Position numbers and translations under genes: made by a program | Shown here: positions 32 through 24,187 of the stretch, one piece after another | How the letters are laid out: each line of letters starts with the position of its first letter | Position numbering within the stretch: position 1 is the first letter of the stretch | The notes under the pieces: model-generated | The model's input: only the letters and a program-made list of their open reading frames with translations | What the model was told of the DNA's origin: nothing | The model's database searches: none | Assembly: GCA_028822955.1 (NCBI GenBank) | Contig: JAPKCL010000001.1 | Coordinates: 1 to 37,034, forward strand | From: Candidatus Poseidoniaceae archaeon | GTDB lineage: Archaea > Thermoplasmatota > Poseidoniia > Poseidoniales > Poseidoniaceae | Direction: 5' to 3' | Length of the DNA stretch: 37,034 nucleotides

Positions 32-3000
32 TCATTCGTTCGCCATTTCGCCTTCATGGGTCTGCGTGAGGTAGGTCACGAGCCCGAGTAAGGCTGCAGA
101 TGCAATTAATATGGCGAGTAATATTTCAACTGAGGCTCCTTGAACGATGACAATTCCTGCAATAATCCAACTCAGTACGAGGTCAAGAGCGCCGACGACT
201 CTCCAGGCTTTACGTAGCGTAAGAACCCCACTTACCCATGAAACCGTTGAACATAACAGGATGAACAGCACTGCGAACAAGAGGTTTGAATATCCAAATG
301 CTGAACCAATCAAGAGAATGTGCATTGCCCACAATGCTGCAGGAAGCCAAAGGCCTTGCCGTTGTTGGACAACCCATGCCGCGAAAAGAATGCTGACCAA
401 TCCGAGGCATGAAGCGATGAATCCGAGTGAGGGGAGCGCGATAATGTCTGAAAGCCATGCACTACTCGCCAAATATGCCATCGGTAACATCAGCCAGGCG
501 GCAAGAACAACTGCAGGTTGAGTCCACCAAACACCGCGGCGAGCCGACTGTATGATGGCTGCAAATGTTGCAGGACCAAAGGAGAGGAGCGCGACAAATA
601 ACAGCCATGCAGAACGGCCACCGGCCCCTCTGTGGTCACTCATATCGTGTTGGATACGTTTGCCTTCAACCCAATCAAATCCGAAGACTGCTGCGAGAAG
701 AAGAGCCTCAATAATGATCAGAGGGGCTGTCCAAGAGAGGGTTGAGAGGGTTGTAACAAATGGGTCAATATCGAACGGGATTGGAACTTCGCCTCCAATG
801 ACGACGCACAAGACTCGGTCTATGGCTGCAAGATAGATGACGCCCTCGAGAGCATTGGGGATTCTGAGTCCCAAATCATTTCGGCCAAGAAGTCCGATTC
901 CAGCTAACATCACAAGCCCTCCAAAGAAAACAAGCAGATGGGTTGCATCTCCGAGTACAACAACCGAATTTGAAGCCCGGCCTGCGACGTGAACCAAAAC
1001 AAGGCCCAACATGCCAAGAGCTATTGGAGCCTCTATTCCCATGATATCAGGCAACCTCAACCCAATTTGATTTGCACGGATTCGCGAAAGGCCGACAAAT
1101 AAGATCGAGATCATTACGCTGAATGAAAGAGCAAGGAGGGTGTTTCCAGAAACGAATGAAAGATATGAAGTTGCAAGAATCGTCGTTGAGAGGAAAAGAA
1201 GAACAATTGTTGGTTGATGGTGAATATCTCCAACATAGAGATCCATATCTCCTGAAGAACCTGAACGGCGTTGGCGTTTTCTCTGTTTTTCTACCAATGT
1301 TAACAATTCTGTATCGATTAGGCGTAGGTTGCTTGTTGGGGTCGAAGTGGTTTCTTCACCCTCTTGGGTGCCACCAAGTTGTAGAACTTCAGAATCTTCC
1401 ATCCCCGAGGATTCAAGGAATGTTTGGATACGTTCTTGTTTATCTTTTAGCCGCTGTATTCGGTTCTCCTTCTTGGTAAGTGCTCGTATACCTGAGCGGA
1501 ACTCACCCTGAACGGCAAGATATGCTCCCGAACCTACGAACGCTATAATTGAAGCCAAAACAACAACTTCAACCGCAATTGAACGTCCGGCTAAAGCCAT
1601 TGAAATGATCAGGGCCACTGCGGTCACAGCAGGCGGTAAAAGTTTCTCCAATGTGGCTGCTCGCAAAAGATACAACACCAATGCCACCAGTCCAATGAGC
1701 ATCAAAACCAAGAGGTTCGTTTCCTTGTCAAGCATATGCTCTGTACCGGTTAAAGGAACGGTTGTAAGGGGGTCCAAAGCAATCATAATGAAAAAAGCCG
1801 TAAGGAAACCCATCATCATCGTCAACAATTGTCCAGGAAGAGTTTCGAAGCGTTCGAGTTCGCTTTCTGTTGCACCTCCGGCGCGTCTGCGATCAGAGGA
1901 TTTCAACAAAATGGCCGAAGAAATCACCAAAGATAAGGCCCAAAACGAAGATTGACCATACGTCCATGAAAGTAAAAGAGCAAAAATACCCCAGAATGAC
2001 ATCAATGTTTGAGGTTTTCCAAGATGTCGTTCAAAGTACACCATCAGTGAATGGCCGATAAGCAAACTGCCGAGAATAATCACTACTCCATACATCGGTA
2101 ATGCGTTTGGGCGAACGATAGCCCAAGTGACGACGACGGAGAAAAGGAAACTCAAGTTCCATAACTTTGCTAAGCCTGAATCTCGAAGCCTTGCCCCGAC
2201 TTCAGAAAGTCCAACCAGTCGTGCTGCGAGGTTTAATCCAACTTCTCCATGGCGGAGATTGACCCAAATTTGCTGCACGACCAGCAGGCTCATCCACAGG
2301 AATAAATCAAATTCGTTTATTGAAATTGGAATGAAATCAGCAGAGATGAGGCGCGCATCAGCATCGGTTGCAAACAACAGGAGCCAAACCCAAGGACCCA
2401 AAACGGCCGTTCCTGCGATAGAAGGTGAAGACCGGTAAACTGCTAATCCAGAAAGGCCAATCCAAACGACTCCTTGGGTAACCAAAAGAATACGGGAGCC
2501 GTTGTTTGAATCTCCTGACGGAATGAGAAGGGTGAGTAAAAGAACGATTGCGAGGCCTCCAAGCCAGAGCACATGGTCGGAGACTGCAGTTTGATTTCGC
2601 AAAAGGGCTACGGCGGTGAACATGGCTGTAAAAACGGCATACAAACTGTACCCGTCCAAGTTCCACGGCAAGGTAATGCCAAGCACGCCCGAAGTATACA
2701 GCGAGAGGCCAATCAGAAGGAACGGTGCTGGGAAGATGATGTAAGGGGCTAATTTCCTCACATCTATGCCTCGAACTACAAGATATGACCCGCTGAATGC
2801 AGAGATGAGAAGCATCAGTTGTGCAAGCGCATAACCTGTTTCCAATCGGTGTGCTGTTATCGCCAATAACGCACCAATCATTCCAAGGCTTACAGAAACT
2901 GACCAAAGTGCAGGTTTACCAAGGCCCATTGCTTCAAATGCTTTGGAAAACCAATTGTCAGCCTGAACAAATTTAGCAGCAATAATAGCATTGGTTGCCG

Positions 3001-3943
3001 TCACACAGGTCATCAACAAGAAGAGTAACAATCCGTCTTCGAACGGGACAATTTCAAGGCCGAAGAGGGCCCAGTCGTCTGAAAGAGCGTGGATTCCAAC
3101 CCAGAGATAGGAAGAAGCAATACCAAGGCTTGCAAGATTTCCAGATTGACGATAAATGGCAAGGCCATGCATAAGTAGAGTGCCCAGACCAATCATCACT
3201 GCAACGCCTATTTCACCATAGTAAGCCCCTGCTGCGCTTCCAACCAACAAAAGAATAAGAGTAGCCTGAGCTGCAATCGCATCCTCATTATGACGTTGTG
3301 CTAGGAATATATTTAGTGAAACAATTCCAATAAGAGTCGTACCGAACATTTCGTTTGCTCCAAAAGAAAGACCGTCAAACCATCCCCAATGCCAAGCATC
3401 AATGGCAAGCCCATAGAAGAGTTTCATCGAGATGATCACCCAGGTCACGCCCAAAAGACGCATATTTGGATTTGGAATCCACCGCTCACCAAGGTAAAGG
3501 CCGAAAAGACCCATGGCTAAGAGCCCTAATCCGCTAGGGATTTCAGGAAGTACCGTTCCAACAATGGCTCCGATAGCCGACCATGTGAGTACCATCGCCA
3601 CCAAGAGCCCGAAACCCAGTCGCTTCTCACCGTGTATTGCAAGATCTGTGACACTGTCGATTTCTGACTTTTGAAAAACGGTGCCGTCAGATTGTACAGA
3701 ACCGGGGTTTTGATGCTCTTCTTTTCCCGAAGAAAACAACGATGTGATCTCACCAACAGCAATATCCTCTGGCTCTGATAAAGGCGTTTGGGTGATTTTC
3801 GGAGTATCCTCTTGGTCTTGTTTTACCATAAATGAATGAATATCTACGCCTTGAGCGCGCTGAAAATCACGTTTCCGAACGACTTCGTCTCTCGACTTAG
3901 AGGGAGTTTCTTCGGACGTGCCGCCGTTCGACCCTCCAGTCAT
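32..3943 (-). CDS. Giant polytopic integral membrane protein (1303 aa), function unknown
   Basis: Uninterrupted 3.9-kb ORF with an ATG start at 3943 preceded by GAGGCGGGTAAGG. It has a hydrophilic N-terminus of about 110 aa, then dozens of hydrophobic helix-length segments. A charged K/R/E/Q-rich linker (KKENRIQRLKDKQERIQ...EKQRKRQRRSG, about nt 1200-1500) interrupts them. I recognised no catalytic motif. Confidence 0.8.
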   Translation of the reverse strand: MTGGSNGGTSEETPSKSRDEVVRKRDFQRAQGVDIHSFMVKQDQEDTPKITQTPLSEPEDIAVGEITSLFSSGKEEHQNPGSVQSDGTVFQKSEIDSVTDLAIHGEKRLGFGLLVAMVLTWSAIGAIVGTVLPEIPSGLGLLAMGLFGLYLGERWIPNPNMRLLGVTWVIISMKLFYGLAIDAWHWGWFDGLSFGANEMFGTTLIGIVSLNIFLAQRHNEDAIAAQATLILLLVGSAAGAYYGEIGVAVMIGLGTLLMHGLAIYRQSGNLASLGIASSYLWVGIHALSDDWALFGLEIVPFEDGLLLFLLMTCVTATNAIIAAKFVQADNWFSKAFEAMGLGKPALWSVSVSLGMIGALLAITAHRLETGYALAQLMLLISAFSGSYLVVRGIDVRKLAPYIIFPAPFLLIGLSLYTSGVLGITLPWNLDGYSLYAVFTAMFTAVALLRNQTAVSDHVLWLGGLAIVLLLTLLIPSGDSNNGSRILLVTQGVVWIGLSGLAVYRSSPSIAGTAVLGPWVWLLLFATDADARLISADFIPISINEFDLFLWMSLLVVQQIWVNLRHGEVGLNLAARLVGLSEVGARLRDSGLAKLWNLSFLFSVVVTWAIVRPNALPMYGVVIILGSLLIGHSLMVYFERHLGKPQTLMSFWGIFALLLSWTYGQSSFWALSLVISSAILLKSSDRRRAGGATESELERFETLPGQLLTMMMGFLTAFFIMIALDPLTTVPLTGTEHMLDKETNLLVLMLIGLVALVLYLLRAATLEKLLPPAVTAVALIISMALAGRSIAVEVVVLASIIAFVGSGAYLAVQGEFRSGIRALTKKENRIQRLKDKQERIQTFLESSGMEDSEVLQLGGTQEGEETTSTPTSNLRLIDTELLTLVEKQRKRQRRSGSSGDMDLYVGDIHHQPTIVLLFLSTTILATSYLSFVSGNTLLALSFSVMISILFVGLSRIRANQIGLRLPDIMGIEAPIALGMLGLVLVHVAGRASNSVVVLGDATHLLVFFGGLVMLAGIGLLGRNDLGLRIPNALEGVIYLAAIDRVLCVVIGGEVPIPFDIDPFVTTLSTLSWTAPLIIIEALLLAAVFGFDWVEGKRIQHDMSDHRGAGGRSAWLLFVALLSFGPATFAAIIQSARRGVWWTQPAVVLAAWLMLPMAYLASSAWLSDIIALPSLGFIASCLGLVSILFAAWVVQQRQGLWLPAALWAMHILLIGSAFGYSNLLFAVLFILLCSTVSWVSGVLTLRKAWRVVGALDLVLSWIIAGIVIVQGASVEILLAILIASAALLGLVTYLTQTHEGEMANE

Positions 3944-6455: not shown

Positions 6456-7421
6456 ATGCATGAGAAATTTGTGGACCCGACAGATGAGCAAGCAGGAGCA
6501 TGGACAAAAGCCTTTGAAGCGGGAAAATTCATCCGCAAATCGAGCGAATTCCGTGACGTAATTGCATCCGGTGATGCCTTTGACACGGAAAGTCAACGCT
6601 ATCACCTCTACGTGTCTCATGCATGCCCGTGGGCGCACAGGACTCTCATCACATCCGTCCTGCTTGGACTTGAAGAACACATAACATTCGATGTTGTCGA
6701 CTGGCGCATGAATCGAAATGGTTCATGGTCATTTAATCCAGAAGAAGAAGGGGCTACTGCCGATACTGTCAACGGTGAAACCAGTCTGGAAGGAATCTAC
6801 AAGCGAGCATATCACGGTTGGGAAGAAAGCGGGAATATTGGAACTGTTCCCATTTTGTGGGACCGAAAACACAGCACTATTGTCAATAACGAAAGCCGAG
6901 AGATTGTTCGAATGTTCGACACACTCGCTCAATCAGGCCTCGGCAATGGGCGAACGTTGTGTCCTGCTGAACTCAAACCCGGAATTGACCAAATGATCGA
7001 TGCGAATTATGAAGCGGTCAACAACGGCGTATACAAGTCTGGATTCGCCCGAACTCAATCTGCATACGATGAAGCAGTCACTGCCTTATTCAATCGCCTT
7101 GATGAATTAGAATCTCACCTCGAAGGTCGAGAATGGTTAGTTGGAGACGGAAAAGGGCAACTCACTGAAGCAGATGTTTGCCTCTTCCCAACCTTAGCGC
7201 GCTTTGATTTGGTTTATGTGGTTCATTTCAAGTGCAATCTCCGCAGAATCATTGATTATCCTAATCTACAAGCATTTGTAGAACGAATGCTGAACCAACC
7301 AGGCGTGCGAGAAACCTGTCACTGGCACCATATCAAAGCACATTACTTCTGGTCACACGAGAGCCTCAACCCTTACCGAATCATTCCACTCGGTCCACTT
7401 GAAGGCGCACATACGAAGTGA
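6456..7421 (+). CDS. Xi-class glutathione S-transferase / glutathionyl-hydroquinone reductase (YqjG/ECM4-like)
   Basis: RYHLYVSHACPWAHRTL contains the CPWA(H/N)R active-site motif of Xi-class GSTs. The length (321 aa) fits, and there is a C-terminal helical GST-like domain. Confidence 0.8.
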   Translation: MHEKFVDPTDEQAGAWTKAFEAGKFIRKSSEFRDVIASGDAFDTESQRYHLYVSHACPWAHRTLITSVLLGLEEHITFDVVDWRMNRNGSWSFNPEEEGATADTVNGETSLEGIYKRAYHGWEESGNIGTVPILWDRKHSTIVNNESREIVRMFDTLAQSGLGNGRTLCPAELKPGIDQMIDANYEAVNNGVYKSGFARTQSAYDEAVTALFNRLDELESHLEGREWLVGDGKGQLTEADVCLFPTLARFDLVYVVHFKCNLRRIIDYPNLQAFVERMLNQPGVRETCHWHHIKAHYFWSHESLNPYRIIPLGPLEGAHTK

Positions 7422-7444: not shown

Positions 7445-8194
7445 TCAGTCTTGCTGAGGCTTCAATTTAACCATTTTAATTAATTTCATTATTCGTAAGA
7501 AAAAATAGCCAATGTCAAAACCTCCGAAGTTTGCATTGCCAGGCATCCGATGGTGTTCGGCATGATTCCCTTCACCCATCGTGAGCATTGCACTTGGTAG
7601 AAAATTACGAGCTTCAGTATTTGGGTCATCTCTAGAACCGATTAAATGAGATACGGAATTAATTGAGTCACCAATGTTGTAAAACAACACGGTAATGGCC
7701 CAACCAAGAGCAATGCCAAACCATCCAAGTTCAGCGTAGAAGAAAAAGAATGGTAGAAGATGGGACAATGCGAGGATGAAATTTACTGGCCTGCGACTCA
7801 TGAATTTCAACAATGGCAAGTCCAAATCCTTTGGTAACTTTTCTGGAAACTTTTTCCAAATGAAGGGGTCTATTATTGTGCGAATTGGGCCTGCTATAGC
7901 ATACAGTATGGCAACTACAGTGCTGCTTGTAGAAAGGTACCAGCCACAATGGGCATGCCAAAAGCCACCAAAATACGGAGAGTGTGGGTCGTCTGCCGTA
8001 TCCGTAGTTTTGTGATGGATGCGATGGTTCAGCGCCCATTGGATTGGTGGCCCAGCCGGTGTTCCAGCGTAAACCAAGAGGTACTTCAGTGCAGAATTGG
8101 ATTGAAACGAATTATGGGAAATCAGACGGTGAGTTCCAAGTGAAACACCAAGGCCAATGAAGACATACCAAATGATCAAAAAGCCGTACATCAT
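7445..8194 (-). CDS. Membrane fatty-acyl (Delta9-type, acyl-CoA/acyl-lipid) desaturase family protein
   Basis: All conserved His boxes of the stearoyl-CoA desaturase family are present: GTHRLISH, WALNHRIHHKTTDTADDPHSP, GFWHAHCGW, NSVSHLIG and GEGNHAEHHRMP. At 249 aa it is short, with a single hydrophobic segment before box 1. Its start overlaps the upstream stop (ATGA at 8191-8194). Confidence 0.85.
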   Translation of the reverse strand: MMYGFLIIWYVFIGLGVSLGTHRLISHNSFQSNSALKYLLVYAGTPAGPPIQWALNHRIHHKTTDTADDPHSPYFGGFWHAHCGWYLSTSSTVVAILYAIAGPIRTIIDPFIWKKFPEKLPKDLDLPLLKFMSRRPVNFILALSHLLPFFFFYAELGWFGIALGWAITVLFYNIGDSINSVSHLIGSRDDPNTEARNFLPSAMLTMGEGNHAEHHRMPGNANFGGFDIGYFFLRIMKLIKMVKLKPQQD

Positions 8195-9114
8195 CTATTC
8201 TTCAACCCTAATTTGGAACGCATTCTTTCAAGATGGGCATGAGCGTGTTCGACAAAAAAGCCGTGCATGAGGAAGCGATAAGAAAGTCCCGTTGGCCCAA
8301 CGAGAATCATTGGGAAGCGGTTGTGAGCAAGGTCTGCAAAGTTCGCAGCTCCGAGGATTTCGTCAATGCGCAAGCCGACTGAATGATCGAATTGAAACGA
8401 ATTGATAGCGGCCTCATATTCTTTAGCAGTCAGCCAAAAACAGAACGTGGTTTTGAATAATTCATGAGCAGTTTCAAAATCAAGAAATTGGGTCCATTTC
8501 TTTCGAGAAGGCGAATATTGGATATCGACTGGTGCCCAATTTGTCCATTGTAACTCCTCCTCGGCGATCGGCCAATTTTCGCCTTTCATTTCACCTAAAT
8601 CACGCATTGTCATCAAGACGCCTTGGTCGTGATGGACGAACGTCTGGACCATGAGGTCTCGAATGACTTTCGGGTAAATGAGGACAGGCTCAACACCTTC
8701 TTTTCCAGAATTATCAATCACGAAATTCAGCAGGTTACTCTCGGTTTGGAAATGACGAAGAATCAAAATGTTGGCTTCAGGACGGACAAAGTGTTTCATA
8801 AAAAAGCAAATCTGCCATTGAAGGAATCTATGTGCTCTCCATTGAATTGGCGACAGCCGTTTGAGATAATAGGTGATGTGAAGAGTAATGCTGAGGAGGA
8901 TTTTCAAGGTTGGTAAAATGACCACTCGTAATGGATTTTGTAAATCTTTGAGCCAGTATTCTTTTGCTTCCAAATCTAAAGGGAGGCTGTCATCGCCACC
9001 CAGTGCATCACTCAGAGATGCTGGCATTCTTCCATGATTCTTGGAGAGCGCTTTGGCAAGACGGCGTTGAGCACGTTGCTCTTTCCGGGATAATGTTAAT
9101 TCACTGGATGTCAT
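8191..9114 (-). CDS. Hypothetical protein (307 aa), operon partner of the desaturase and KAS III-like genes
   Basis: Long ORF with an ATG at 9114 overlapping the upstream gene by 14 nt, and a stop overlapping the desaturase start. It has one hydrophobic segment (LRVVILPTLKILLSITLHITYYL). I recognised no family motif. Confidence 0.7.
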   Translation of the reverse strand: MTSSELTLSRKEQRAQRRLAKALSKNHGRMPASLSDALGGDDSLPLDLEAKEYWLKDLQNPLRVVILPTLKILLSITLHITYYLKRLSPIQWRAHRFLQWQICFFMKHFVRPEANILILRHFQTESNLLNFVIDNSGKEGVEPVLIYPKVIRDLMVQTFVHHDQGVLMTMRDLGEMKGENWPIAEEELQWTNWAPVDIQYSPSRKKWTQFLDFETAHELFKTTFCFWLTAKEYEAAINSFQFDHSVGLRIDEILGAANFADLAHNRFPMILVGPTGLSYRFLMHGFFVEHAHAHLERMRSKLGLKNR

Positions 9115-9850
9115 ATTCTATTTCCTCCAATTGTAATCGATAAAGTCGAGCAACAACTTTCGAAGTCTTGACAATACTTTTAATTGCTTTTTCGTTAACA
9201 CAAACACTGTTCAATGTTGCATAAAAACGCTGCATGTGGTCGCTATCGTTTTCTCCATGATAGGTCATGAAGCGAGTAGAATCTTCGGACAGGCCAGTGA
9301 GTTCTTGAATTCGTTCAGCCCATGAATTCGCCATCTTTTCTCCGAGACCTTCGATGATCCACATTGCACCGAGTAAATCAATCGGGTTTGGACGAGAGGA
9401 GCGATGCATGAGGAAGCCATGTAAGGCTTCTGAACCAATATTGCGTTCCATATTGAGGATGTCTTCAAGCTGGCCCCCTGATGCAACATAATCTTTCTCA
9501 AGCATTTCGTAATCACGGTGCTCATCGACAGCATGGCTGATAATGGTTGAACGAATTTCGGAATGGTCTCGGTCAAAACTACTTGCAGTTCGTGTAATCC
9601 ATCGCGACCCTTCGATGACTTGTTGTCGAATATTTCTCAAAAATATTTGATGGTCTTCGACAGTATAGGTGCCTAAATCAATTCGACGAAGAAGAGGGAC
9701 TTTGGACAAATCTCGTTCAAAACCAAGCCAAACACGGAGTAATTGTTGGAGGCACACTTGGGCATGTGAGTTCAATACCACTCCTTCATGCTCCTTTTCT
9801 TGAGTTGGAGCGGAACCGCCGCCTTCGATTGGAATTTTACCATTATTCAT
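9101..9850 (-). CDS. Heme-oxygenase-like (Haem_oxygenase_2 / iron-containing redox enzyme family) putative diiron protein
   Basis: The sequence looks all-helical, with carboxylate/His clusters spaced as in heme-oxygenase-like diiron oxidases and TenA/PqqC-like folds: HAVDEHRDYE, WIIEGLGEKM and YHGENDSDHMQRF. The family assignment is by pattern only. The start overlaps the KAS III stop (ATGA at 9847-9850). Confidence 0.55.
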   Translation of the reverse strand: MNNGKIPIEGGGSAPTQEKEHEGVVLNSHAQVCLQQLLRVWLGFERDLSKVPLLRRIDLGTYTVEDHQIFLRNIRQQVIEGSRWITRTASSFDRDHSEIRSTIISHAVDEHRDYEMLEKDYVASGGQLEDILNMERNIGSEALHGFLMHRSSRPNPIDLLGAMWIIEGLGEKMANSWAERIQELTGLSEDSTRFMTYHGENDSDHMQRFYATLNSVCVNEKAIKSIVKTSKVVARLYRLQLEEIEYDIQ

Positions 9851-10983
9851 TCACTCACCACCGTTAATTGCAGATAGGTCGTATTGAAACGCCCACTTTC
9901 TGGAACAAAACAGAGGACTCTGTCCCCTTCTTTCACCGTTACTTCCTCTGTGCGTAAGAATTCATCAAGCATAATGAAGAGTGATGCTGAACCAGTGTTG
10001 CCACGTGTGTAGAGGTTTGTCCACCACTTTTCTTCAGGTATTCCAGCGCCGGCCGTATCAAGCATTTCGAGAATTTTATTTCTAAAGTGGTGGCTTGAGT
10101 AATGGCACAAGAAGTGGTCGACTTCGCTGGGCTTACTCACGCCTTCTTCGACGAGGCGAAGATACCCATCGACGCCCATTCGCATGAGGTTATCGAGGAG
10201 ACGAACGTCTTGGCGAAGAAGGAGAGCGCCGTCTTGTTCTGCTTCTGCATAGGTGTCATAATCTTGCCAAGTTCGAGTGTCTTCAGGGCGTCCTGCAGAA
10301 CCGACACTCATGCAGGTAGGGAGGGCGTGGGCGTGTGAAAAGCCCCGAATCCAATCAATCCGTAAACTGAAACCTTTGGGGGCTGGTTTGTTTTGTAACA
10401 AGAGTGCTCCGGCGCCATCAGAAAGCATCCATCGGAGGAATTCAGTGCTGAAGTCAATGCGTTTCGCAGCAAAGGTCGAGGTGGTCGCAGCCTCATAACG
10501 TTGCTTTTTGAGAAGTCGGCTGGCTAATTCACTGGAGACAACAAGGGCTGCTTCATGCTCTTCAAGACGCAAACTGTTCCAAGCTGCCTTCAGTGCCATA
10601 ATCGATGAAGAACAAATTCCATGCGTCGTAAGGATTTCTATTTCAGGTAGTTCCAATTCCGCTTGTACCATACTCGCCATTCCCGGGGCAGGGAGGTCAC
10701 CTTGCGTCGAAGCGACGGCCAACATGCCTATCTTCTCTCGGTGGACGAAACCGCGGTCAAGGCATTGTTCTGCAGCATTTGTTGCCATTTCGGTATTGCT
10801 GTGTGTTGTTTGTTGTTGTTCATCAATTGCATAATGGCGCGTTTCAATTTTGTTCGCTTTTTGAATTTGGACGCGAAGAGAAGAAGGTTTGCCATGAACG
10901 GCGCCAAGTACGTTTTCGACCTGGTCAACTGAAATTGCTGGGCCTGGTAAAAAGGAACCTGTACTGGTGATGTAAACCGTCAT
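9847..10983 (-). CDS. 3-oxoacyl-ACP synthase III (FabH/KAS III)-like condensing enzyme, thiolase superfamily
   Basis: A Cys-His-Asn triad sits in the expected context: THGIC(124)SSS, FLCH(294)YSS and YTRGN(329)TGSAS. The 378-aa length is FabH-like. The start overlaps the upstream stop (ATGA at 10980-10983). Confidence 0.85.
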   Translation of the reverse strand: MTVYITSTGSFLPGPAISVDQVENVLGAVHGKPSSLRVQIQKANKIETRHYAIDEQQQTTHSNTEMATNAAEQCLDRGFVHREKIGMLAVASTQGDLPAPGMASMVQAELELPEIEILTTHGICSSSIMALKAAWNSLRLEEHEAALVVSSELASRLLKKQRYEAATTSTFAAKRIDFSTEFLRWMLSDGAGALLLQNKPAPKGFSLRIDWIRGFSHAHALPTCMSVGSAGRPEDTRTWQDYDTYAEAEQDGALLLRQDVRLLDNLMRMGVDGYLRLVEEGVSKPSEVDHFLCHYSSHHFRNKILEMLDTAGAGIPEEKWWTNLYTRGNTGSASLFIMLDEFLRTEEVTVKEGDRVLCFVPESGRFNTTYLQLTVVSE

Positions 10984-11555
10984 TTAATCGCCTCTTTGGC
11001 AAGATTTCTTTCATATGTCCAGCAACGCCACCATTCTTGAGCATAGGGGCCAACCACTAAGATCGACATTGAAGTGATGTAGAATACTGCGTAATTTCCA
11101 GTTGCGCCCAAAGGCTCTTGGCGCCATTGCAAAGAAAAACCACCGGCCCAATTGAAGCCAATCAAATCGAGGAAAACTTCCCACTTTCGAACAATTATCA
11201 AGAGTATAAGGAAGAACGGCAAGGTGGCTAAATAATTATGAGCGTGAACTTCCCAGATGCTTATTTCTCTTTTACCAGTCGTGAAATGAACATCATAGTG
11301 CGCGATGAATTCATGCGCAATTAGTGCTGCAAAGCAAAGAATAAGAATCAATACATTGACTTCAAAAACAAGAGAAAGGACCAATGGAAGGCCAATTTGA
11401 GCACCCATGAGGCAATGGATATTTGCTTCACGTAATCCGGAAGTGGATTCGATACTGGTCTGTTTATGGCACCACCAATCAAGTATACTGGCAATGCCCC
11501 AAAGTGGCAAGAGGACATAGAGAATTATGTTTAACACCAGAGTTGCTTCGTCCAT
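10980..11555 (-). CDS. His-rich small integral membrane protein (191 aa), first gene of the operon
   Basis: About five hydrophobic segments. His clusters lie at predicted membrane boundaries: WWCHKQ, IAHEFIAHYDVH and EVHAHNY. The ATG at 11555 is preceded by GTAGGGGAA. Confidence 0.7.
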   Translation of the reverse strand: MDEATLVLNIILYVLLPLWGIASILDWWCHKQTSIESTSGLREANIHCLMGAQIGLPLVLSLVFEVNVLILILCFAALIAHEFIAHYDVHFTTGKREISIWEVHAHNYLATLPFFLILLIIVRKWEVFLDLIGFNWAGGFSLQWRQEPLGATGNYAVFYITSMSILVVGPYAQEWWRCWTYERNLAKEAIK

Positions 11556-11648
11556 AGCGATTCCCCTACATTACCTTCTAATGCTCATTTGATAAAAAGA
11601 CAGTTCCGGACAAAACAACATTCGCGATAATTTTGAGACCCCCAGGAA

Positions 11649-16496: not shown

Positions 16497-17792
16497 ATGG
16501 TTGAAATATTCAATCCAAAAACGGCTGTATCGGCTGGTTTGACAGAGTTTGCCCCTGACGCAACTGCAGCAGGAGAGTTAGTATTCTTTCATGCAAGTGA
16601 AGGAAAACCATTAGCAACTCCTTGGCAAGTGGCTTTAGCTCGTTCGAAACTCCTCAAACAACTGTCTCTCCCTGAAGGGTACATTTTGGATTGTGCTTGC
16701 GGAAGTGGCATCCAACTTGGCGCACACATGGCTCTTCTTCAACGGCCCGGCATCGGAGTCGAACTTGACGAAAAGCGTGCCCAAGCGAGCGCCGTTAATC
16801 TGCAGTCCATTGCCACATACCGCAATGAAATGGACTCTGAACGGATGCAAAAAACACGTATTCTGGCCGGCGACGGGCGTGACGGTGCTACGGTGTGCGC
16901 AGCAATGGCCGACCACCTCAAACTCGAACAATTTCCAAACATCGCTTTACTCCATTTGGACCCTGCCCGTCCACGAAACAGTCGGACGCACGGTCTTGAG
17001 GAAATGGAACCGCGGCTCGACGAGGTGTTCAAGGGCTGGGCACCGTATTTGACAGAAGGAGAGAACGGCCCCGCATTACTACTCGATCTATCTCCACGGC
17101 TTACGCATGACCAGCGTCTCGAAGTCGAAACAATGGTCGATGCTGCGTGGAAAGGGATTCGACGCACATGGGTTTGGACGTCTAGGGGACGAGGGCGGGT
17201 CGATAGGCTTGCAATATGGCTTGGCGGTGCTGCTACCGCAGGTGTTGCTCGTCGATTCGTTCGCATTCCGCCATCGATTACTGAAGAAGCACATGTGATT
17301 TCAGGAGGCATGCGGATTCATTCAGGCGATGGCTTGCCTACCCCAGTGCAGTCGCCACCAAGGCGTGGTGAGCGAGTCAGTATCCTCGATGCCGCCCTTG
17401 TCGAGAGTGGTCTTGCAGATGATTGGTTGAAAACAGTCACTAAATCCGAACACATATCCTGGAGTGTTGTAGAAGGGCGGCGCCCTCAAATCCATCACCA
17501 ACACCCTCTCCTACTCGAGGATTCAATGGACAGAATGTTGGTCCAAGCAACTGGGCGCGTGGTCGCTTTAGCCCGCATAAAACTCGATCTTAATACGGTC
17601 GATCAATTGGTCGAATTAGTTCTCGAGCATGACATAGCAAAAATGACTGTTCGCGTCCCACTCGCACCAGAGATTCAGCCAAAAATACAAGGTGCGATTG
17701 ACCGTCAACTTGCACGAAGGCACGGCCGGAGAGAGGCTTTTGTCGTCCAACAACCCGGAGATGAAATGCTCCTCATTTGTATTGCCGAATAA
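16497..17792 (+). CDS. Class I SAM-dependent methyltransferase with C-terminal extension (possibly THUMP-like)
   Basis: SAM-binding motif I ILDCACGSGIQLG and a downstream HLDPARP motif. The ATG lies 9 nt after the pyrE stop. The substrate cannot be determined from sequence. Confidence 0.65.
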   Translation: MVEIFNPKTAVSAGLTEFAPDATAAGELVFFHASEGKPLATPWQVALARSKLLKQLSLPEGYILDCACGSGIQLGAHMALLQRPGIGVELDEKRAQASAVNLQSIATYRNEMDSERMQKTRILAGDGRDGATVCAAMADHLKLEQFPNIALLHLDPARPRNSRTHGLEEMEPRLDEVFKGWAPYLTEGENGPALLLDLSPRLTHDQRLEVETMVDAAWKGIRRTWVWTSRGRGRVDRLAIWLGGAATAGVARRFVRIPPSITEEAHVISGGMRIHSGDGLPTPVQSPPRRGERVSILDAALVESGLADDWLKTVTKSEHISWSVVEGRRPQIHHQHPLLLEDSMDRMLVQATGRVVALARIKLDLNTVDQLVELVLEHDIAKMTVRVPLAPEIQPKIQGAIDRQLARRHGRREAFVVQQPGDEMLLICIAE

Positions 17793-20467: not shown

Positions 20468-23400
20468 ATGCAGAATGCGCGACGAACGGCTATAAGCCTC
20501 ACTTTTCTTTTCATTTTTGCAGCAATGATACCAATGGTATCAGCACTAAATGAACCAAATGATTTTGAACAGAATTCATCGGAGAAATATCTCGAGACTC
20601 CTGTGGTGAATCAACCAACTAAAATTATATTTAAAGAACCGCAACAAAAAACTACAACCGGTGGTCGTGCTGCCTGTGTAGCACAGTCCGATGCTGGAAC
20701 ACCAGGTGATGCTGGAAGTGACGCCAATACATCTCGCAGTCTTGGAACAAATCCAAACAGCGGACAATCTGGCGTTCAAGGATGTGTTGATTCTACAGAT
20801 ACTGAAGATTGGTATGAAATTACTACAACCGCAGGAAAAGATGTTGATGTAGAATTAGTCGTTCCAAGCGGCATGGATTTCGATCTGTACCTCATGGATT
20901 CATCCGGCACAATTGTTGATTATTCAGAATCCGTAACTGCCTTGGAAAAAGTAAGTACTTCTGGAACCTCACTTTCGAGCAATGCTGGAACTTTTTACAT
21001 CGAAGTTCTCGTCTACAGCGGCGATGGACAATATTCACTTCGCACTTGGACCAATAATACGCCGCCTCGCCCGGACCTTATCCTTTCATCCATCGTTGAA
21101 CCAAGTTCAGGCCAACCCGGTTCCACAGTCAACGTCGAATATGTTGTTGAAAACATTTACAACACCACCTCAGATGCCTTTGAAGTACAATTTGTTCTCT
21201 CAACCGACCAAACCTATGATTTTAATGACGAGTTAATCGATACTTCACAAGCTGAAGCGGCATTAGCTGAAAATACCAGTCGGACAACAACGACTCAGGT
21301 TCTTCTTCCATCAAATCTCGCCAATGGCACCTATTACTGGCTACTGTTTGTTGACGGATATGATAATGTAACAGAAAACAATGAATCGAATAATTTCCTT
21401 GCCTCAACTGGCGTTATGCTCGTTGGTGATTCTTGTGACGACCTCCATCCAAATGGACAGGATGATGCCGGCCTTGGCGCTGATGCCCCACAAGACGAAG
21501 CGAATGCCTCAACTCCAATGGGAACCAATGTTACCGCATCTTACACTGGATGTATCGATGGAATTGATGGGAATGATGTCTTTTCTTTCAATGTCCCTGC
21601 AAACCACACCCTTGATGCCACGCTCATCCTCAATGAATCCGTTGCCGTCTACATTGAATTAGTCGATGGAAACCTTGGATTCATAGATTACGCGTATTCC
21701 TTTGGAACCACTGAAGGCTCTGTCTCAACATTTGGTACTTCATATGACGGCGTAGGTGGAACATATTACGTCAATCTCTCTCGCTCAGGGACAGGAGTTG
21801 ATTGGAGCTTAGACATATGGACAAACTATTCAACCCCAGCACCGAACTTAGTCATTGATAACATCACTGCGCCTCTTATTGCAAGTGCTGGAAACAGCAT
21901 TACTCTCGATGTTGAAGTCAACAATACTGGAACCCAACTGGCTCCTGCATCCTTGCTCACTGCATGGCTTTCAGTTGAGGGTACTCTTGCAGACCATGAT
22001 ATCGAAATCGGCAACATGAGTGTTCCAGCCTTAGACATCAATGAAAGCGGACTTTTCCAATTCACACTCGTGATTCCTTCAAACACGCCCGGAGGCAACT
22101 ATTCCATTATCGCAATGATTGATTCTGATGAACAAATTGACGAAAAGAGCGAATCGGACAACACTGCTGAATCCTTTGAATTGATTCTGATAGACAGTAA
22201 AGCAACTTCATGTCCAACTCAGGATGATGCTATGTCTGGCGGAGATGCTGGTGAGGATGAGGCGACTGCGCTTTACTTAGGGATGGATATCTCTACCACA
22301 ATCTATGCTTGTGTTCACAAAGATATCGATGATGACGATTGGTTTGAAATTGAAGTATCACCTGGCCTTAATTTGACCGTAACACTCGTTAATTCAGCAG
22401 ACCAAGATGCTGACGTCTACCTCCATGATGACCAAGGAGTATGGTTTGAACGAGGATTCCTCGGTGGATCTTCTGATGAAACGGTGAGTACTGCTGACAG
22501 TACGGGATTTTCGGGAACGGGTGGCACTTTCTTTATCAGCGTTCAGAGTTGGTCCAGTTTAGGTATTTACACACTGATTATCGAAACTGAAGGCGTGGAC
22601 TCGGATTCGTTTAATTGCGGACAACAGGATGACCTCGGAATAGGAGAAGACGCTCCTGCTGGAAACGGTATCGACATTGGACAAAACCCAACAACTTCCG
22701 GTGAAGGTTGTTTCAGTGGCTTCGATGAATCTGATGTCTTTTCTTTCACTGTAAACGACGGTAAGAATTTCCAGATTGAATTTACAGCAGACTCTGCACT
22801 CGCCTTCACTGCTACCCTTACTGATGTGAGTGGGAATGTAATCGCCTATGCTGACAATGCAAGCTATGGAACTGTTTTCACTTCTTTTGGAACGGAATTC
22901 GAGGGCAAGACGAAGGATTACGTTCTGGTCATTGATTCAAATGGCGGCGCTGGTTTCTACAACCTCTCGATTGAAGGACTCGATTCGGCTCCGGCTGATA
23001 TTGCAATATCTTCTCTTGTCTGTCCGACGGACCACACTTCAGGTTCTGAAGTTCAAATTACATGGGAATTGGTAAGTCTGCGAGGAAATGCCAATGCCGC
23101 TACTATTACCCTTTACCTTGACCTTATTGATTTGGATGGAGAGGAAATAGGCCGGATTGCGGTGCAAACTATTACCGTAAGTGGAGAATACAACACTACA
23201 TTTGGCTCGGGTGGCGAATCCTATACTACGCTTGAAGAAAGGGTATCGGGGATCTACAATTGCCGACTCACCATTGATGTCGATAATGTTTTGATGGAAT
23301 CCAACGAATCCAATAACCAGGCAATCGGCACACCGTTCTTTATTCAGAATGAAGAGGAACTATGGGCAAATGACGTTGACCGTGACGGATTCAATACAAC

Positions 23401-24187
23401 TGATTCTGGCGATGGGATTGTTGATGATTGTCCAACAACCTATGGCGATTCTACCATCGACCGAGTTGGATGTGCTGACCTTGATGGCGATGGAGTCTCT
23501 AATTTGAATGACTTATGGCCTTTCGAACCAAGTCAATCGCTTGATACCGATGGAGATTCTTATGGCGACAACCCTGAAGGACTCGACGGAGATGCTTGTC
23601 CTGAAGTCGCTGGAGTGGCAAATGGGGATGGCGGCGATGGTTGCCCAGCTATCGATACTGATGCTGATAATGATGGCGTTGAGGATATCAATGACCAATG
23701 CCCAGAAACTCCTGAAGGGACTGTTGTTGGAATCGACGGTTGCGAGACTGATGATGGCCAAACAAATCAAGATGAGAACTCAACTGTTGACACCAATGTG
23801 ACTCTTGGCAGCAATGTTACTGATGGCGGTGAGGACAATACAAATCCAAATGAAGATGGAGGCGATGATACAACTGATGGCGCTCAATCAAATTCGGAAA
23901 TCTTTGGAATGGATACGGTAACAATCGGAATCATAGCAGGGGCAATTGTAATTATTCTCTTCTCACTGGTATTAATCGTCCGTGGACGAGGAGGAAACAG
24001 CGGTGAAGATAAGTTGTTTGAACAACAACAGATGGCTTATGCTTCTATCACGGGATTACCTGCTGCAGACCCGTCTATCACGCCTGAGCAACTGGCCTAT
24101 GAACAGCAATTACTCGCTGCAGGATACCCTGCGGATTATGCTCGAACATATGCAGATCAACACTTCCGCCCATGGTTGAAAGTTTGA
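20468..24187 (+). CDS. Large modular cell-surface protein with signal peptide, PPC-like and CARDB-like domains, TSP3-like Ca-binding repeats and a C-terminal TM anchor
   Basis: N-terminal signal-like segment LTFLFIFAAMIPMVSA. Four pre-peptidase-C-terminal-like modules, each opening with C..QDDAG.G.DA and containing D(W/V)(Y/F)(E/S)(I/F). Three CARDB-like modules ending in E(N/K/S)(N/S)ESNN or ESDN. D-x-D-x-D-G repeats. TM segment VTIGIIAGAIVIILFSLVLIV followed by a short cytoplasmic tail. Many N-x-S/T sequons. Confidence 0.85.
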   Translation: MQNARRTAISLTFLFIFAAMIPMVSALNEPNDFEQNSSEKYLETPVVNQPTKIIFKEPQQKTTTGGRAACVAQSDAGTPGDAGSDANTSRSLGTNPNSGQSGVQGCVDSTDTEDWYEITTTAGKDVDVELVVPSGMDFDLYLMDSSGTIVDYSESVTALEKVSTSGTSLSSNAGTFYIEVLVYSGDGQYSLRTWTNNTPPRPDLILSSIVEPSSGQPGSTVNVEYVVENIYNTTSDAFEVQFVLSTDQTYDFNDELIDTSQAEAALAENTSRTTTTQVLLPSNLANGTYYWLLFVDGYDNVTENNESNNFLASTGVMLVGDSCDDLHPNGQDDAGLGADAPQDEANASTPMGTNVTASYTGCIDGIDGNDVFSFNVPANHTLDATLILNESVAVYIELVDGNLGFIDYAYSFGTTEGSVSTFGTSYDGVGGTYYVNLSRSGTGVDWSLDIWTNYSTPAPNLVIDNITAPLIASAGNSITLDVEVNNTGTQLAPASLLTAWLSVEGTLADHDIEIGNMSVPALDINESGLFQFTLVIPSNTPGGNYSIIAMIDSDEQIDEKSESDNTAESFELILIDSKATSCPTQDDAMSGGDAGEDEATALYLGMDISTTIYACVHKDIDDDDWFEIEVSPGLNLTVTLVNSADQDADVYLHDDQGVWFERGFLGGSSDETVSTADSTGFSGTGGTFFISVQSWSSLGIYTLIIETEGVDSDSFNCGQQDDLGIGEDAPAGNGIDIGQNPTTSGEGCFSGFDESDVFSFTVNDGKNFQIEFTADSALAFTATLTDVSGNVIAYADNASYGTVFTSFGTEFEGKTKDYVLVIDSNGGAGFYNLSIEGLDSAPADIAISSLVCPTDHTSGSEVQITWELVSLRGNANAATITLYLDLIDLDGEEIGRIAVQTITVSGEYNTTFGSGGESYTTLEERVSGIYNCRLTIDVDNVLMESNESNNQAIGTPFFIQNEEELWANDVDRDGFNTTDSGDGIVDDCPTTYGDSTIDRVGCADLDGDGVSNLNDLWPFEPSQSLDTDGDSYGDNPEGLDGDACPEVAGVANGDGGDGCPAIDTDADNDGVEDINDQCPETPEGTVVGIDGCETDDGQTNQDENSTVDTNVTLGSNVTDGGEDNTNPNEDGGDDTTDGAQSNSEIFGMDTVTIGIIAGAIVIILFSLVLIVRGRGGNSGEDKLFEQQQMAYASITGLPAADPSITPEQLAYEQQLLAAGYPADYARTYADQHFRPWLKV
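23366..23743 (+). repeat. Thrombospondin type-3-like aspartate-rich calcium-binding repeats (protein-level tandem repeats)
   Basis: Recurrent D-x-D-x-D-G-x-x-D with flanking Cys: DVDRDGFNTTD..DDCP, DLDGDGVSNLND, DTDGDSYGDNPEGLDGDACP, DTDADNDGVEDINDQCP. Confidence 0.7.

Follow-up and report, generated by a model that had tools for sequence, protein, structure and literature searches.

A compact group of minus-strand genes in the genome of a Candidatus Poseidoniaceae archaeon encodes a ketosynthase (KS) of the StlD/DarB type together with a set of putative oxidative enzymes that stays with this KS throughout one archaeal family and in a wide range of bacteria. The genes lie between positions 7445 and 11555 of contig JAPKCL010000001.1 (assembly GCA_028822955.1), within the stretch of 37,034 nucleotides that was analysed here and that is referred to as the window. 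Four genes form the core of this cassette, encoding a His-rich membrane protein, the KS, a heme-oxygenase-like (HO-like) protein and a protein of the DUF6999 family. The novelty lies in the combination: a known type of pathway, DarB-type head-to-head condensation, is found with a different and uncharacterised set of oxidative partners. Literature searches found no description of the cassette.

A conserved gene cassette in archaea and bacteria

The first gene, g1 (10980..11555; 191 aa), encodes a His-rich integral membrane protein of an unnamed family, here called TM191. It is followed by g2 (9847..10983; 378 aa), a head-to-head condensing KS of the StlD/DarB type with a thiolase fold; by g3 (9101..9850; 249 aa), an HO-like, HDO-type putative dimetal oxidase; and by g4 (8191..9114; 307 aa), a helical DUF6999 protein that is a putative metalloenzyme. 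A short, predicted delta9-type membrane desaturase, g5 (7445..8194; 249 aa), completes the series. When the junctions were read base by base, an ATGA stop/start overlap was found at g1/g2, g2/g3 and g4/g5, and a 14-nt overlap at g3/g4, exactly as the initial annotation had described them along with the five open reading frames (ORFs). Among 54 complete Poseidoniaceae loci, the g1/g2 overlap is −4 nt in 41, the g2/g3 overlap is −4 nt in 45, and the g3/g4 overlap is −14 nt in 36; the remaining values are probably artefacts of the choice of start codon by the script. Because the same overlaps recur across these 54 loci, those within g1–g4 are not a matter of chance.

The linkage was surveyed with local hidden Markov models (HMMs). 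The KS, the HO-like protein and DUF6999 occur together in all 55 Poseidoniaceae loci that hold the KS, with g1 present in 54 of the 55. The order g1-g2-g3-g4 is colinear in 54/55 of these KS-holding species, in every related locus long enough. For bacteria, a genome collection was scanned with the KS alignment, yielding at least 596 relatives, and the best 80, together with earlier loci, were classified by the same type of model. The trio was present in 76 of these 82 bacterial loci (of the six exceptions, three lie on truncated contigs), and DUF6999 comes after the KS or HO-like gene in 77/82. The co-localisation in relatives that the initial annotation had proposed as a check is thus found on both sides. 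The functional linkage that it implied is supported for the KS, HO-like and DUF6999 genes; the desaturase is optional.

The bacterial loci come from at least nine phyla. Their hosts, as labelled, include Gamma- and Betaproteobacteria, Myxococcota, Bdellovibrionales, Cyanobacteria, Melainabacteria, Bacteroidota, Paenibacillus, Acidobacteriota, Acidimicrobiia and Verrucomicrobiota, with many cultured strains among them. Cultured carriers include Shewanella sp. 1CM18E, Pseudoalteromonas sp. A601, Halomonas sp. A29, Chitinophaga qingshengii JCM 30026, Pedobacter caeni DSM 16990, Paenibacillus glycinis T1 and strains of Leptolyngbya and Microcoleus. In 53 of the bacterial loci the HO-like domain is joined to the C-terminus of the KS, a fusion that spans Cyanobacteria, Bacteroidota, Paenibacillus, Acidobacteriota, Actinomycetota and Betaproteobacteria. 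For example, Leptolyngbyaceae JSC-12 and several metagenomic contigs encode one KS and HO-like protein of ∼630 aa, directly followed by DUF6999. In other bacterial loci the three genes are separate and adjacent. The order of the window (TM-KS-HO-DUF6999) is kept in loci L066 and L067 of our survey and rearranged in an Acidimicrobiia genome. The combination, first put forward as an archaeal peculiarity, belongs to a cassette that is widespread in bacteria and that the archaea probably acquired horizontally.

Three loci labelled ‘Verrucomicrobiales bacterium’ (L030), ‘Salinimicrobium sp.’ (L045) and ‘uncultured bacterium’ (L048) carry a cassette of the Poseidoniaceae type, with 75–79% protein identity to g4. 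The probable explanation is that archaeal contigs were mis-binned into bacterial metagenome-assembled genomes (MAGs).

The ketosynthase is a relative of StlD and DarB

The best NCBIfam model for g2 is NF005293, the StlD/DarB family beta-ketosynthase, at 380.3 bits (E=1e-113). In the Protein Data Bank (PDB), g2 matches the crystallised StlD of Photorhabdus (5gk0) end to end over residues 2–376 at E=1e-70, whereas FabH structures reach ∼1e-9. FabH models fall far under their cut-offs (TIGR00747, 61.6 bits vs 292; NF006829, 82.7 bits vs 249), and the ‘FabH-like’ label initially given to g2 is better replaced by StlD/DarB-type. HMG-CoA synthase, a housekeeping family singled out beforehand as a check, is likewise under its cut-offs (TIGR01835, 22.3 bits vs 360; NF003274, 22.4 bits vs 244).

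The KAS III-type triad Cys124/His294/Asn329 of g2 is intact, as first noted, and aligns to Cys126/His302/Asn337 of StlD. The StlD numbers follow from the PDB alignment on the assumption of a 20-residue tag, a numbering that reproduces Cys126 and His302, which we take to be the catalytic residues’ published positions. Across 89 cassette KSs and 81 genuine dar/stl KSs, 47 positions are invariant in both sets, including the triad and the FLRWMLSDGAGA motif. Consistent differences are confined to 2 of 49 strongly conserved positions, G252/S258 and C293/P301, the latter adjoining the catalytic His. By this sequence comparison the active site is essentially unchanged between the two groups, and the cassette KSs are most aptly regarded as forming a subfamily that is sister to DarB. 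The reaction predicted for g2 is a Michael/Claisen head-to-head condensation to a carboxy-cyclohexanedione.

DarA is excluded from the cassette

In the parts of two reviews that deal with these enzymes, DarB and StlD are described as forming a carboxy-cyclohexanedione by condensation of two acyl thioesters, one beta-keto and the other alpha,beta-unsaturated; DarA or StlC then aromatises this dione, with decarboxylation, to a dialkylresorcinol or stilbene (PMC6836626; PMC10088813). The same sections state that these KSs have lost the ability to elongate and recruit their precursors from primary metabolism. Both reviews, of 2019 (Martins et al., PMC6836626) and 2023 (PMC10088813), list in their passages on the subject ‘DarA-less’ homologues of DarB as orphans with unknown products.

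For comparison, a set of 80 genuine StlD/DarB loci was assembled and a DarA profile was built from 74 sequences. With this profile, a conserved DarA of ∼300 aa was found directly upstream of the KS in 77/80 dar/stl loci, while homologues of the HO-like protein, DUF6999 and TM191 were found in 0 of the 80. Conversely, the profile had no match at E<=10 in the ORFs of the window or in any of 139 cassette loci. DarA and the cassette partner set are mutually exclusive. That DUF6999, the HO-like protein or TM191 might be a divergent DarA was considered and rejected by hhalign (probability <1%). In one locus, from Paenibacillus rhizosphaerae (L140, 5983-8954), the KS stands alone and adjoins an alpha/beta hydrolase; given this neighbour, it was not accepted as a classical dar locus.

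The partner proteins carry invariant metal-ligand-type residues

The first description of g3 as HO-like is upheld. Pfam PF14518 (Haem_oxygenas_2) matches at 37.0 bits against a threshold of 28.9 (E=4e-9), with only the C-terminal half (residues 145–235) aligned. A profile of the g3 family finds the PDB entry 3dde, of the HO-like fold, at E=8e-13 over residues 44–229; this nearest solved relative is itself uncharacterised. Residues E80, H106, E110, D113, E141, E167, H198, D202 and H205 are invariant in the family and include an H-x3-D-x2-H motif. The metal motif of HDOs is E-H-E-H-(D/E)-H on three core helices (PMC11363339). As judged from sequence, E167 would fit as the helix 2 candidate and H198-x3-D202-x2-H205 as helix 3; H106/E110 is the probable pair of helix 1, with its order reversed relative to the HDO motif, and E80, D113 and E141 are extra invariant residues. 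The set of His and carboxylate residues is consistent with an HDO dimetal site. No UndA structure was found at E<=10 in PDB sequence or profile searches with g3. The Pfam family TENA_THI-4 gave no match at E<=0.1, and the sole link of g3 to TenA is the TenA/Thi-4 label that the depositors gave to 3dde.

The protein g4 had been considered an orphan. It matches Pfam PF22523 (DUF6999) at 297.4 bits (threshold 27, E=1e-88), covering profile positions 5–275 of 275. The family is small, with 196 clusters at 50% identity among 1.84 billion representatives. Its invariant residues are R120, H121, N135, H162, D163, D212, D243, H284 and E289, and g4 appears from this His/Asp/Glu set to be a putative metalloenzyme. 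One hydrophobic helix is present, and the AlphaFold2 (AF2) model is all-helical with high confidence (pLDDT 88.3, pTM 0.85). It has no significant match among PDB folds (best E 0.7, TM score ∼0.15). Weak rows to PolF and BesC, both HDOs, were disregarded at this TM score of ∼0.15, and DUF6999 as a divergent HDO was rejected by hhalign (probability 0.3%).

The His-rich protein with five transmembrane segments predicted for g1 is borne out by five hydrophobic segments and 7 His. No Pfam or NCBIfam match was found. Its AF2 model is all-helical with a pLDDT of 92.9 and has no match among PDB folds (best E 0.9). Searches returned 279 homologues, including bacterial ones at ∼50% identity, and in bacteria, too, these adjoin the KS. 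The family keeps D26, W27, C29, H30, E43, H47, H81, H86, D88, R96, E102, H104, H106, E174, R177 and C178 invariant, six His overall. A truncated FA_hydroxylase was considered for g1 and rejected by hhalign (0.3%). NCBI names some g1 homologues (P0401, P0407, P0426, P0468) ‘diguanylate cyclase’, although they are 190-aa membrane proteins without a Pfam match on record; the name looks like a propagated misannotation.

The desaturase and other accessory genes

With 58.4 bits to Pfam PF00487 (FA_desaturase; threshold 29.7) and the three His boxes HRLISH (22–27), HRIHH (57–61) and HAEHH (211–215), g5 is a predicted delta9-type membrane desaturase, in agreement with the initial annotation. A g5-type desaturase occurs in 12–17 of 57 Poseidoniaceae loci, roughly a fifth to a third. 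The g5 subfamily is also embedded in seven bacterial cassettes (L116, L118, L124, L129, L134, L135, L142) at 163–197 bits, and bacterial g5-type genes are often placed between the KS-HO gene and DUF6999. The earlier proposal that these folds work together is strongly supported by this context. The HO-like protein and DUF6999, however, are the signature partners of the KS, while the desaturase recurs as an optional accessory.

A divergent Poseidoniaceae clade (L044–L055) has a desaturase downstream of DUF6999 that is only 37–48% identical to g5 of the window. By bit score it is no closer to g5 than are bacterial g5-like genes (203 vs 196 bits, the latter in Verrucomicrobiota, L142). Such a pattern points either to independent acquisitions or to rapid divergence of this accessory gene.

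Other accessory genes recur in the bacterial cassettes, including a second type of desaturase and PAP2 proteins. An FA_hydroxylase (PF04116) is seen upstream of KS-HO among loci L105–L143; it takes the position equivalent to g1 in 17/82 bacterial loci, a g1 homologue is present in 25/82, and the two occur together in none. FA_hydroxylase may therefore be a non-homologous replacement of g1. The accessory genes all belong to membrane lipid-modifying diiron families or to PAP2, and the presence of FA_hydroxylase and PAP2 at the cassette is a hint of a membrane-lipid product.

The loci behind the FA_hydroxylase and PAP2 observations also include L060, L077 and L142, and a PAP2-family gene was once found fused to FA_hydroxylase. 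In cyanobacterial cassettes, a recurrent protein of 160–169 aa with the motif ‘RHDxMHVxTGY’ and without a Pfam family is encoded just upstream of the fused KS-HO gene (L058, 5152-5751, minus strand; L106, 5474-5980, plus strand; also L093, L109 and L115). It may be a further lineage-specific partner.

Proposed pathway and alternative explanations

From these assignments we infer substrates, a product and the reaction steps that would follow the condensation. The substrates of g2 would be a 3-ketoacyl-CoA and a 2-enoyl-CoA from beta-oxidation, a process whose genes are found widely and at high transcript levels in Poseidoniales (bioRxiv 10.1101/2020.09.16.299958). As both would be beta-oxidation intermediates, no gene for an acyl carrier protein (ACP), ketoreductase (KR), dehydratase (DH) or enoyl reductase (ER) would be needed. 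Such genes are absent from the window and do not recur near the cassette loci, in line with the original view that this is not a fatty acid synthase (FAS) module. As in DarB and StlD, g2 would join the substrates head to head by Michael addition and Claisen cyclisation, giving a 2,5-dialkyl-carboxy-cyclohexanedione.

The HO-like protein would act next on the KS product with O2, a position suggested by its fusion to the KS in most bacterial lineages. HDOs such as UndA catalyse the oxidative decarboxylation of fatty acids, according to the passages on them in a recent account (PMC11363339), and the most plausible step for g3 would be a similar reaction leading to a dialkylresorcinol. Removal of CO2 and a neighbouring hydrogen from the carboxy-cyclohexanedione (carboxy-CHD) would give the resorcinol tautomer directly, which is DarA’s job in classical clusters. 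Thereafter g4 and g1, as membrane-associated putative metalloproteins, might relay electrons or carry out further hydroxylation or oxidation of the ring or chains; FA_hydroxylase would stand in for g1 in other lineages. Where present, g5 would introduce a double bond into an alkyl side chain. The pathway would end in an oxidised lipid, amphiphilic and non-isoprenoid, of the dialkyl-cyclohexanedione, resorcinol or (hydro)quinone type.

These proposals differ in strength. The general scheme, in which the cyclic product of a DarB-type condensation is tailored by O2-dependent metalloenzymes, has in our judgement an even chance of being correct. It preserves what was originally proposed, the condensation of acyl units followed by oxidative tailoring, which is still the best reading of the locus. 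We put forward with less assurance the full version, a new route to oxidised dialkyl-aromatic membrane lipids in which a KS-tethered HO-like enzyme replaces DarA and DUF6999 and TM191 are new types of metalloenzyme. The specific step by which the HDO-type g3 would replace DarA, drawn by analogy with UndA, is more tentative still.

Several points weigh against this scheme. The role given to g3 relies on chemical analogy, with no sequence similarity to UndA detectable, and the model leaves the strict co-occurrence of DUF6999 unexplained. The cassette KSs score just below the StlD/DarB cut-off of NCBI (380–448 vs 450 bits; 424–448 for those other than g2), with g2 also at 326 bits against a cut-off of 550 for the DarB ‘exception’ NCBIfam model, and in the neighbour-joining KS tree they stand on a separate branch, far from StlD. 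The cyanobacterial locus L123 (2788-4933) has the KS and DUF6999 without an HO-like protein. The look-up for DarA and ACP in this genome covered 37 kb, and such a gene is possible elsewhere. Finally, the 2019 review, where it discusses DarA-less homologues, considers that they may differ in reactivity and may not make carboxy-CHDs (PMC6836626).

This last suspicion of other reactivity is shared by a hydrocarbon or ketone pathway, to which the initial UndA/UndB analogy pointed and in which a non-cyclising head-to-head Claisen condensation, OleA-like or pyrone-synthase-like, would give a 2-alkyl-3-keto acid that the HO-like enzyme decarboxylates oxidatively to a long-chain enone, ketone or olefin, with the membrane enzymes desaturating or hydroxylating the chain. 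On lipids, HDOs are best known for oxidative decarboxylation (UndA), the accessory enzymes all act on alkyl chains, and the relatives of DarB include pyrone-forming KSs, as noted in the relevant part of the 2023 review (PMC10088813). We nevertheless consider it unlikely: a difference at only 2/49 strongly conserved positions argues for the same cyclising chemistry as in DarB/StlD, and neither OleB/C/D-like genes nor sequence similarity to UndA or UndB were detected.

Alternatively, the ring might be formed and never aromatised. The (carboxy-)CHD would be kept as a dione, and the HO-like protein and DUF6999 would hydroxylate or oxidise it, for example into triketone-like or hydroxy-CHD signals. 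No cassette locus has DarA, DarB by itself releases CHDs according to the section on this enzyme in one review (PMC6836626), and the other, in its passage on DarA-less clusters, leaves it unclear whether their products contain cyclohexanedione moieties (PMC10088813). Unless it acts on the ring, the O2-activating dimetal enzyme that is fused to the KS in most phyla would go unexplained by this outcome, and oxidative decarboxylation of a carboxy-CHD would be expected to lead straight to the aromatic tautomer. We regard it as decidedly unlikely.

A role in primary fatty-acid synthesis, with g2 as a FabH that starts a bacterial-type or ACP-independent FAS and the other genes modifying membrane fatty acids, is very improbable. 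The thiolase fold and Cys-His-Asn triad are common to FabH, and Marine Group II archaea are often discussed as carrying bacterial-like lipid genes. However, FabH models give 62–83 bits against cut-offs of 249–292, compared with 380 bits for StlD/DarB, no FAS partner gene is found with the cassette, and the KS is invariably tied to HO-like and DUF6999 genes in our survey, apart from the exceptions given above. The DarB clade, moreover, is described as having lost elongation in the part of the 2019 review concerned with it (PMC6836626). Chance packing of housekeeping genes such as HMG-CoA synthase and TenA thiaminase, or a chimeric or bacterial contig, to which the TenA/Thi-4 label of 3dde and the binning of some public cassette contigs as bacteria might seem to point, is effectively refuted by HMG-CoA synthase scores of 22 bits against cut-offs of 244–360, the lack of a TENA_THI-4 Pfam match in g3, the gene order and overlaps kept in 54 archaeal loci and the archaeal genes, uniform GC content and related flanks of the same contig described below.

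Origin of the cassette in Poseidoniaceae

The relationships of the KSs were examined in a tree rooted on StlD, built by neighbour-joining (not maximum likelihood) on a sample that included seven Poseidoniaceae sequences. The Poseidoniaceae KSs are monophyletic (bootstrap 100) and are nested in a 100%-supported clade of g1-containing four-gene cassettes, mostly gammaproteobacterial, whose hosts are Gammaproteobacteria, Myxococcota and Melainabacteria. Their sister, at bootstrap 75, is the marine MAG contig L066, labelled Myxococcales, a label that is a bin assignment only. In the sample, the KS family is found in at least nine bacterial phyla and in one archaeal family, which makes a transfer from bacteria to Poseidoniaceae the parsimonious direction. 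The cassette thus probably passed horizontally from bacteria to the ancestor of the family. The even GC content of the window and a divergence of 60–99% among the archaeal copies suggest that the acquisition is old.

Genomic context

The contig is archaeal and belongs to Poseidoniaceae, Marine Group IIa. As the initial annotation had recognised, it carries PolD; an S13-S4-RpoD cluster, phosphoenolpyruvate carboxykinase, fumarase and large CARDB surface proteins are also encoded in the window, and the GC content is even at 0.43–0.52. The gene for PolD DP2 ends 93 bp upstream of g1, and its product is 84–97% identical in about 25 related Poseidoniaceae contigs. The adjacency had been remarked upon and is real, but it is incidental: it is limited to the ∼25 closest loci, and PolD DP2 was rejected as a linked partner. 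Because it is missing in most related loci, the cassette is presumably transcribed on its own. The 93-bp intergenic region (11556..11648, minus strand) may hold its own promoter; the sequence preceding the g1 ATG shows a T5 run and a TTTTATC element at ∼45 nt and GGGG at 8 nt.

On the other side, tail-to-tail with g5, lies a plus-strand gene (6456-7421) for a Xi-class glutathione S-transferase, or glutathionyl-hydroquinone reductase, with a CPWA motif. It matches YqjG in the PDB at 3e-73 and 4uss, ‘glutathionyl hydroquinone reductase’, at 1e-68. This neighbour would be intriguing if the product of the cassette were a (hydro)quinone; it co-occurs in the four closest relatives only and was rejected as a member of the cassette. 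Elsewhere in the window are a 1303-aa ORF without a Pfam match (32-3943, minus strand), a 431-aa ORF without a Pfam or NCBIfam match (16497-17792, plus strand) and a 1239-aa CARDB/TSP3/PPC surface protein (20468-24187).

Significance

The homologues of DarB that lack DarA, listed as widespread orphans, have fixed partners in DUF6999 and an HO-like protein that is often fused to the KS. Since the cassette is present in many cultured strains, the question of its function is directly testable. There may also be new enzymology in DUF6999 and TM191, two conserved and unstudied families with metal-site-like invariant residues and confident models that have no structural relatives.

The findings also touch on the ‘lipid divide’. 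Marine Group IIa archaea are uncultured and globally abundant, and in at least 55 of their species-level genomes the cassette is a fixed feature. If the proposed pathway is correct, abundant planktonic archaea would make fatty-acid-derived, non-isoprenoid lipids with machinery from bacteria, which would offer a candidate biomarker and show bacterial-type lipid chemistry concretely at work in an archaeal membrane. A cyclic lipid built by this group from fatty acids would be of consequence both to the biology of archaeal membranes and to the study of marine lipid biomarkers. Since the archaea look to have taken over a bacterial cassette horizontally, its occurrence in them is less exotic than first proposed.

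Comparison with known systems

FabH (KAS III) has the thiolase fold and Cys-His-Asn triad in common with g2. It differs in that g2 is far below the FabH cut-offs, the cassette is without FAS partner genes and DarB-type enzymes do not elongate. UndA and UndB, the terminal-olefin enzymes to which the folds had been compared, belong to the same two superfamilies as g3 and g5, and lipid substrates and O2-dependent chemistry are plausible for these as well. The parallel applies at the superfamily level and does not extend to sequence: the only PDB relative found for g3 is 3dde, with no similarity to UndA detected, and g5, unlike UndB, has His boxes of the delta9-desaturase type and is optional. To our knowledge, neither UndA nor UndB is coupled to a KS; each works by itself on free fatty acids.

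The closest systems are the DarAB(C) and StlCDE clusters. Their KS is homologous to g2 over its full length (StlD, E=1e-70), and the cassette, like the brt cluster, is without a dedicated ACP. In place of DarA, the cassette has the HO-like protein, often KS-fused, and DUF6999, plus TM191 or FA_hydroxylase, and its KS falls under the curated family cut-off and into a separate clade. The cyanobacterial ‘DarA-less’ homologues of DarB are nearer still: members in Leptolyngbya, Microcoleus and JSC-12 have a KS without DarA in small clusters, and they and the cassette KSs are very probably the same family. The passages on these homologues in the two reviews (PMC6836626; PMC10088813) make no mention of the HO-like fusion, DUF6999, TM191, the spread across phyla or the archaeal members, which are the features that the present analysis adds to this group.

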